From assembly GCF_003334255.1 (NCBI RefSeq), contig NZ_QOWU01000100.1: a stretch of 6,492 nt of DNA. One strand, given 5' to 3'. The position numbers and the translations under genes are program-made. Each line of letters starts with the position of its first letter. Position 1 is the first letter of the stretch. Positions 1 to 123 of this stretch are shown piece after piece. Source of the DNA: Escherichia coli (GTDB taxonomy: Bacteria; Pseudomonadota; Gammaproteobacteria; Enterobacterales; Enterobacteriaceae). The notes beneath the pieces are model-generated. The model was not told where the DNA came from, ran no database searches, and was given only the letters and a program-made list of their open reading frames with translations.

Positions 1-72
1 GCCTGATTGCTGTTGTATGATGATGAAGCGTAAATCGCTGTATAAGTCTTTTGTTTGAGTGGAGTCAGTCAT
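1..72 (-). CDS. Partial CDS, N-terminus only (gene continues leftward beyond the window); unknown product, next gene after the Cox-position gene in the prophage early operon
   Basis: Minus-strand ATG at 72..70 is preceded by AAGGTG with a 5-nt spacer (reverse complement of 73-83) and lies 52 nt downstream of the stop of the 124-648 gene. The frame stays open to the window edge (MTDSTQTKDLYSDLRFIIIQQQSG...). Only 24 codons are visible, so no product call is possible. Confidence 0.3.
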   Translation of the reverse strand, partial: MTDSTQTKDLYSDLRFIIIQQQSG

Positions 73-123
73 GTCAACACCTTCAAATCCCGATGCTCTT
101 AATGATCCCGGTTTGTTTTGATG

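Follow-up and report, generated by a model that had tools for sequence, protein, structure and literature searches.

At the left edge of a 6,492-nucleotide stretch of Escherichia coli DNA (contig NZ_QOWU01000100.1; "the window" denotes this whole stretch), a minus-strand ATG at positions 72-70 opens a reading frame that stays open to position 1 (24 codons, MTDSTQTKDLYSDLRFIIIQQQSG), which raises the questions of whether the cut frame is a gene, to what element it belongs and what lies beyond the edge. In the reading that we favour, with a probability of roughly 0.88, positions 1-123 comprise the 5' end of a small gene, here called orf64, together with its ribosome binding site and the spacer before it, and orf64 is the second early-operon gene of a 37-38 kb P2-family prophage that is inserted into the serS/STnc130 terminator, upstream of dmsA. 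What lies left of position 1 was read from proxy genomes, the best whole-window match being 99.3% identical. Among the complete RefSeq E. coli genomes, the contigs that encode the exact Cox-like protein and IMG/VR, no sequence equals the window over all 6492 bases, and the exact DmsA allele, present in 43,834 blocks, is too widespread to discriminate. Three proxies were annotated end to end, namely E. coli STEC2018-607 (NZ_CP075697.1; locus L001), JNEC-KY208 (L002) and SCU-106 (L003), the first of which is 100% identical to window positions 1-2184 and shows its first mismatch at 2185.

The prophage and its attachment site

The right end of the prophage forms the left part of the window (Table 1) and is followed by dmsABC (2456-6393), and the same layout, with the prophage between serS and dmsA, is found in JNEC-KY208 and SCU-106. 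The int, C and cox reading frames of the window are all intact. The Cox-like protein matches the Pfam family Phage_Cox over residues 58-129 (E=2.1e-5) and phrog_23196, annotated as a transcriptional regulator, far more strongly (E=2.7e-120), and the repressor carries the RefSeq product name "helix-turn-helix domain-containing protein". Two start codons have been called for the integrase, a TTG at 1149 in the program-made list of open reading frames (335 aa) and the ATG at 1164 in the RefSeq record of the identical protein (330 aa).

Table 1. Features of the left part of the window, with positions in nucleotides, strand and the basis of each assignment
Feature	Position	Strand	Basis
orf64, first 24 codons	1-72	-	Translation; identical annotated CDS in the 100%-identical proxy
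Spacer between cox-like gene and orf64, 51 nt, with Shine-Dalgarno match	73-123	-	Sequence; cox-like stop codon at 124-126
Long Cox-like regulator, 174 aa, early-operon gene 1	124-648	-	Phage_Cox PF10743; phrog_23196
Divergent control region between cox-like and repressor genes	649-752	.	Sequence; inverted repeat
C-type immunity repressor, 113 aa	753-1094	+	ORF; Pfam HTH_3 hit for the identical protein at related loci
Tyrosine integrase, 330 aa, RefSeq start MSIKQL	1164-2156	+	ORF; Pfam Int_N and Phage_integrase
att core CCTGCGGGCG, prophage right end	2246-2255	.	Empty site compared with attL and the window
sRNA gene STnc130	2231-2365	-	Rfam RF02084

The att core was placed by aligning an empty site (contig L014), two attL sequences (L003 and L001) and the window; rightwards from the core, the window and the empty serS-dmsA site have the same sequence. 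Insertion has taken place within a terminator hairpin common to serS and the sRNA gene STnc130, and the covariance model of the latter scores 140.1 bits in the empty site; in the window the 3' half of the stem is phage DNA, and the score accordingly drops to 124.8 bits. At attL, most of the serS-side terminator is restored.

STEC2018-607 carries two sibling prophages, at 855.3-893.0 kb (L028, L029) and 4349-4388 kb (L001), whose flanks are swapped (yfaA'-int...hok-serS and yfaA'-hok...int-dmsA). The swap points to a large chromosomal inversion through recombination of the prophage at serS/dmsA with one inside yfaA, a site that has AAAGCGCCTGCGGGCG in common with the serS site. Another strain holds a degraded remnant of a related prophage (L020, 1-9704) with a tape-measure gene joined directly to the early region. 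At the far end of the window, the last 78 bases (6415-6492) differ from the usual dmsC-ycaC spacer and match with 100% identity the end of an insertion sequence that occupies the same place, apparently in the opposite orientation, in contig L007 and encodes a 370-aa DDE_Tnp_1 transposase. This end, which we take to resemble IS186, accounts for the up to 23 places per genome at which the whole window finds matches.

From end to end the element spans about 37.3 kb in SCU-106; the figure of about 38.0 kb for STEC2018-607 includes an 829-bp tandem duplication. After the early genes, which end with SSB, the proxies continue with a cos-proximal accessory locus, portal and terminase genes divergent from the scaffold (GPO) gene, a P2-family capsid gene and gpM, followed by head completion and lysis genes, a gene for a 681-aa protein, tail and baseplate genes, D, ogr, two hok/gef genes and attL. 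RefSeq product names in all three proxies identify sheath, tube, late control protein D and an ogr/Delta-type zinc-finger activator at the end opposite int. The large terminase gene is frameshifted in STEC2018-607 (L001 27369-29101), and in each of the three proxies the annotation splits the tail-fibre gene into fragments (L001 15336-16340; L002 29268-29864; L003 16952-17956).

Affiliation with the P2 family is evident within the window, where integrase and C-type repressor lie on one strand and a divergent early operon is led by a cox-type gene, as well as outside it, where an 837-aa protein with the Phage_GPA domain (PF05840) was found in all ten contigs fetched through the exact Cox-like protein and in the three proxies. 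The capsid protein matches 509 phage records and, among the matches listed, several are annotated as P2-family major capsid protein. It is at most 62.1% identical to that of any deposited phage, the best matches (60.7-62.1%) being P88/Xuanwuvirus-like rather than P2. The DNA of int-C-cox finds three phage records only, at 82.6-82.9% identity, and the head module has no megablast match among 50,697 phage records, so that the lineage has no sequenced isolate. Judged from these comparisons, genus-level kinship to P2 (Peduovirus) or to any sequenced phage is not apparent. The term "P2-like" applied to this prophage in the earlier note is therefore apt at the level of the family, by virtue of int, C, cox, gpA, Q-P/O-N-M-L, D and ogr, and does not extend to the capsid with its P88/Xuanwuvirus-like affinity. 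The lineage may be defective, which would fit the absence of a sequenced isolate; some 387 complete genomes contain its portal end at 95% identity or above.

The early operon beyond the left edge

In the proxies the early operon begins with the long Cox-like gene and orf64 and proceeds through DUF4761, DUF4754, small genes of no known function, a 3'-5' exonuclease, a ParE-like protein and Dam to DUF4406, an isrK/C4/antirepressor cassette, gpA, a MarR-like protein and SSB. The claim of the earlier note that the operon continues past the left edge is borne out, as same-strand early genes after orf64 span about 12 kb to gpA and SSB in all three proxies. The outcome that would have contradicted it, a stop after a few codons and no further phage genes, is seen in none of the three; the frame runs to 64 aa in each, with the prophage after it. 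Of the loci that encode the identical Cox-like protein, 12 of 12 follow the proxy collinearly over 10 kb or more, interrupted by mosaic patches, and the ten contigs fetched through this protein continue as far as gpA and SSB.

The control region between cox and C contains a perfect 11+2+11 palindrome at 709-732 (AAAGATACTCG-CG-CGAGTATCTTT), which we consider a candidate operator. A perfect TTGACA on the minus strand (768-763), just inside the repressor gene, is a candidate -35 element of the early promoter, with a poor -10 element when read by hand; a strict scan for the sigma-70 consensus found nothing for this promoter. By analogy with P2 and 186, the early operon would be transcribed from a promoter facing the repressor gene, the C repressor would shut it off in the lysogen, and induction or infection would switch it on. 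An operon that is silent in the lysogen and active upon induction implies that orf64 would act in the lytic cycle rather than in the resting lysogen.

The early region of the proxies includes two RNA elements. In STEC2018-607, isrK (RF01394; L001 37381-37455; 67.9 bits) and the C4 antisense RNA (RF01695; L001 37258-37345; 84.2 bits), both above the gathering score, lie upstream of an antirepressor-type "derepression" gene (L001 36980-37201) whose Pfam Derepression hit is weak. The whole cassette (L001 36429-37455) is situated about 4.5-5.5 kb left of the window in this proxy, where it is duplicated in tandem, 829 bp apart. The set looks like a P1-style secondary immunity cassette placed in the early region.

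The genome of the window might itself hold a truncated remnant, in which the early operon stops shortly left of position 1 and no cargo follows. The left side is known through proxies that match the whole window at 99.3% at best, a related prophage has left a remnant at the same att site in L020, and the proxies are partly decayed, in the terminase of STEC2018-607 and the tail fibre of all three. We nevertheless regard truncation as improbable, since the full 195-nt gene is kept in each of the 18 complete genomes that match at 95% or more, the 12 loci that encode the identical Cox-like protein stay collinear over at least 10 kb, and int, C and cox are undamaged in the window. An early operon that continues to gpA remains the reading that we prefer.

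orf64 and the slot behind cox

In the window, AGGTG at 82-78 is a 5-nt match to the Shine-Dalgarno consensus with a spacing of 5 nt to the ATG, and the preceding gene on the same strand (124-648) stops 51 nt upstream of the start. By our own estimate, a frame of 24 codons stays open by chance with a probability of about (61/64)^24 = 0.32, so that the window by itself does not go beyond chance and the case is carried by comparative data. RefSeq annotates a 195-nt CDS in STEC2018-607 that starts at the base corresponding to window position 72 and encodes a hypothetical protein of 64 aa (WP_016237836.1), whose first 24 residues equal the translation of the window. This agrees with the earlier note, which had proposed a minus-strand gene starting at 72 with a credible ribosome binding site and running out of the window. 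A 64-aa gene at the same offset, in three alleles, is present in ten of ten contigs fetched by way of the exact Cox-like protein, and the full 195-nt orf64 in 18 of 18 complete genomes that match at 95% or more. Two IMG/VR contigs contain the exact left-edge sequence, one of them a viral contig of 37,174 bp.

Conservation reaches well beyond these close relatives. The length of 64 aa is kept in homologues down to 70% identity, and TQTKDL, QQQSGR and PTR form an invariant core of the family. Two other immunity modules are also followed by homologues, which in every case directly precede DUF4761. One of these, at 84.6% identity, lies behind a different immunity module in FDAARGOS_943; another, in JNEC-KY176 (NZ_AP045172.1; L034, about 1480-1685), is an intact 67-aa homologue with about 71% DNA identity, without annotation in RefSeq, that sits between a short Cox gene (93 aa) and DUF4761. 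Every homologue with a source name comes from E. coli. Selection on orf64 appears weakly purifying (pN/pS = 0.63, from one pair with 30 differences), and the Shine-Dalgarno region reads GAATGTG instead of GAAGGTG in some relatives, which weakens the match there. Among 5426 complete E. coli genomes, 20 carry orf64, compared with 357 that carry a homologue of the long Cox gene. Taken together, these comparisons show at the sequence level that orf64 is a real, conserved gene, predicted to continue to 64 aa.

orf64 is a near-orphan. No match was found in PHROGs, PADLOC or NCBIfam, nor a precomputed Pfam hit, and tblastn detected no homologue in 50,697 phage records, among which P2 should be included. 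Exhaustive searching of 1.84 billion representative proteins with a profile yielded three clusters only. Among the distant relatives is a 93-aa protein (P0012) from the early region of another P2-like prophage, beside cpxRAP, in a region that also holds a gene with a Phage_186_Fil domain (L030). The product of orf64 is predicted to be small and mildly acidic, and AlphaFold2 models it from 8 sequences as a three-helix bundle (pLDDT 84.5). Neither a profile search against PDB sequences (best E=1) nor a Foldseek comparison of the model with the PDB (best E=2.3) gave a significant match.

The position behind cox is variable among relatives. A mosaic, recombinational junction lies at about 107/108, inside the spacer between the cox-like gene and orf64, and in several relatives whose int-C-cox region is 94.6-99.4% identical, homology to the window begins only at position 108-111. 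In SCU-172, a relative of SCU-102, 986 bp that encode a 77-aa protein and, on the opposite strand, a 136-aa protein take the place of the interval from about -185 to 107; a prophage of ST131 has an unrelated 140-aa gene in the place of orf64, and in L020 a 68-aa membrane protein follows cox. Since relatives carry other small genes past about 107/108, orf64 sits in a small, swappable slot. The statement in the earlier note that no cargo hotspot is in view is accordingly correct for the main hotspot, between gpA and portal, which is off the window, and falls short for this slot, the right boundary of which is inside the window at about 107/108. An opposite-strand early gene (155-263 aa) had also been considered as cargo of variable length and was rejected, as PHROGs places its versions in one family (phrog_6315) that differs in start calls.

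Exchange of genes at this place would also be expected if orf64 were cargo expressed in the lysogen, that is, a moron or defence gene with a promoter of its own inserted behind cox and no member of the early operon. Relatives have unrelated genes in the slot, including one that is read in the opposite direction, and the interval from integrase to primase accounts for 8% of the defence systems in P2 elements (preprint 10.64898/2026.02.27.708500). Such an origin seems quite improbable to us, given that orf64 is on the strand of the operon and only 51 nt after cox, that neither a promoter-like nor a terminator-like site was found in the spacer (73-123), that PADLOC has no match for orf64, and that the gene stays linked to the downstream DUF4761 block in different immunity contexts. 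The least probable alternative, an ORF that arose by chance within a non-coding part (leader or spacer) of the early transcript, may appeal to an open frame expected about one time in three by our estimate, to the lack of a match in any protein family library, to a pN/pS of 0.63 and to one unannotated homologue, and is very hard to reconcile with a frame kept intact at 64-67 aa down to about 70% identity with its invariant core in three immunity contexts, with distant relatives of the same core in P2-like early regions and with a confident AlphaFold2 model from as few as 8 sequences.

As a member of the early operon, orf64 may at best guess, and with low confidence, be a dispensable accessory of the lytic cycle whose product binds a partner protein, in host takeover or counter-defence, rather than a defence gene expressed by the prophage.

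Off-window cargo and comparison with known phages

The main defence hotspot of P2 lies between gpA and the portal gene, next to cos, and holds tin and old in P2 itself (Rousset et al. 2022, PMC9122126). Minor loci exist, one of them between integrase and primase; 19% of P2 elements have no identifiable defence genes and carry genes of no assigned function at the main locus, and many such hotspot genes of P4 and P2 elements proved active (preprint 10.64898/2026.02.27.708500). In the proxies, the main hotspot (SSB to portal/cos) is found about 10.1-11.8 kb left of the window. In STEC2018-607 (L001 30151-31850) it comprises two ORFs, each in its own orientation, for which Pfam and NCBIfam have no family. 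One encodes a membrane-anchored protein of phrog_1416, with homologues of 173-223 aa in E. coli, Salmonella and Shigella, and the hotspot usually also holds a portal-adjacent phrog_5091 protein. The latter, modelled by AlphaFold2 with a pLDDT of 60 from a five-sequence alignment, has a homologue (26% identity) in the ST131 prophage and for this reason is probably not cargo. A DUF4760 protein replaces the phrog_1416 gene in JNEC-KY208, and phrog_2284 is a further family at this locus. The full hotspot arrangement of the proxy was found in only 6 of 5426 complete genomes; most close relatives keep the same phrog_1416 gene, which suggests that turnover within the lineage is modest.

Two other candidates for cargo were discarded. 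A hotspot gene that seemed to vary in length (90-198 aa) is a single family in PHROGs, phrog_1416, with different start calls. P2 has a second hotspot, of the Z/fun type, between the tail-fibre assembly and sheath genes; here a DUF4376 assembly-like gene abuts gpU, and the gap of 10 bp leaves no room for cargo.

The earlier note had placed any defence or other cargo further left and proposed that the sequence be extended leftwards and compared with defence-system models. Carried out on the proxies, with PADLOC v2.0.0 models, which cover systems described up to 2023, applied protein by protein to 40 non-structural proteins of the proxies and slot variants, this extension uncovered ordinary phage genes and a few accessory genes of no assigned function, and PADLOC recognised no defence system among the 40 proteins. 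The placing of accessory genes to the left was thus sound; a defence system is not recognisable in the closest relatives. PADLOC likewise had no family for the phrog_5091, phrog_1416 and DUF4760 proteins of the proxy hotspots or their variants. Its matches were confined to Dam, assigned to orphan or type II methyltransferases without a nuclease partner, to the exonuclease, a weak DEDDh match (E=3e-5), and to the MarR-like protein and the C repressor, both with weak winged-helix or HTH-type matches. On this evidence the element would belong among the 19% of P2 elements that have only genes of no assigned function at the main locus.

Outside the hotspot, two tandem genes of the hok/gef toxin family, 46 aa each, lie between attL and ogr (L001 6442-7054; L003 8058-8670), with no Sok-type RNA detected by Rfam and no matching PADLOC model. 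The 681-aa protein (L001 20210-22255, minus strand) contains, according to Pfam, DUF1737 (residues 4-53), SASA (163-288) and DUF6645 (527-643). NanS-p proteins combine an N-terminal DUF1737, a SASA (SGNH) esterase domain and a C-terminal region in 630-660 aa (PMC10462455), and by its architecture the 681-aa protein is a predicted sialate O-acetylesterase of the NanS-p type, as in Stx phages. A DUF1378 gene (L001 19890-20063, minus strand) is adjacent to it between the lysis and tail genes. Both the NanS-p-like and the DUF1378 gene are metabolic or virion-associated cargo and not defence. The off-window cargo of the closest relatives thus amounts to one or two hotspot genes of no assigned function, two hok/gef genes, a NanS-p-like esterase and an orphan Dam; the prophage of the window itself may differ in this respect.

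The cut gene is an ordinary finding, namely the effect of a window edge on a common, publicly annotated type of E. coli prophage. What the analysis adds is a delimited prophage of about 37 kb that ends at the att core, and a list of its likely off-window content, in which no known defence system is to be expected. The lineage, without a sequenced isolate, has several unstudied small genes, of which orf64, phrog_1416 and phrog_5091 are candidates for anti-phage or counter-defence screens. We consider it unlikely that at least one of two things holds: that the stretch from cox to DUF4761 is an undescribed mini-hotspot of P88-like Peduoviridae in which lytic effectors are exchanged, or that phrog_1416, with or without phrog_5091, has an undescribed superinfection-exclusion or anti-phage function. 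If the mini-hotspot exists, the exchanged genes would be small effectors of the lytic cycle, for example in counter-defence or host takeover, and orf64 would be one of them.

Close parallels to orf64 in gene position come from coliphage 186, in which cII, fil and dhr are small accessory genes of the early lytic phase, expressed only in lytic development. The early genes of 186 and orf64 are alike in being small, in lying directly downstream of an excisionase/Cox-type gene and in belonging to an early lytic operon; sequence or fold similarity of orf64 to cII, fil and dhr is absent.

The early operon of P2 consists of cox, orf78, B, orf80-83 and A, with C and int divergent from it, and its G/H genes are on one strand with FI-FII-E-T-U. 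As in P2, int and C of the present prophage share a strand and a cox-type gene opens the early operon on the other strand, the gene directly after cox is small and of unknown function, a gpA-type replication endonuclease is encoded further down, a hotspot lies between gpA and portal/cos, and D and ogr are at the far end. Unlike in P2, the Cox-like protein has 174 aa with a long N-terminal extension, the early operon includes Dam, the exonuclease, the ParE-like protein, DUF4406 and the isrK/C4/antirepressor cassette, and the FI-FII-E-T-U block and the G/H tail-fibre and baseplate genes occupy opposite strands. Apart from ParM/ParR-like genes after gpA, which distinguish it from the element studied here, the ST131 prophage (PV468777.1) shows a similar plan, with the same att site beside dmsA, the same order of cox, DUF4761, DUF4754 and gpA, a NanS-p-like fragment that follows the lysis genes and a gene homologous to the portal-adjacent one.
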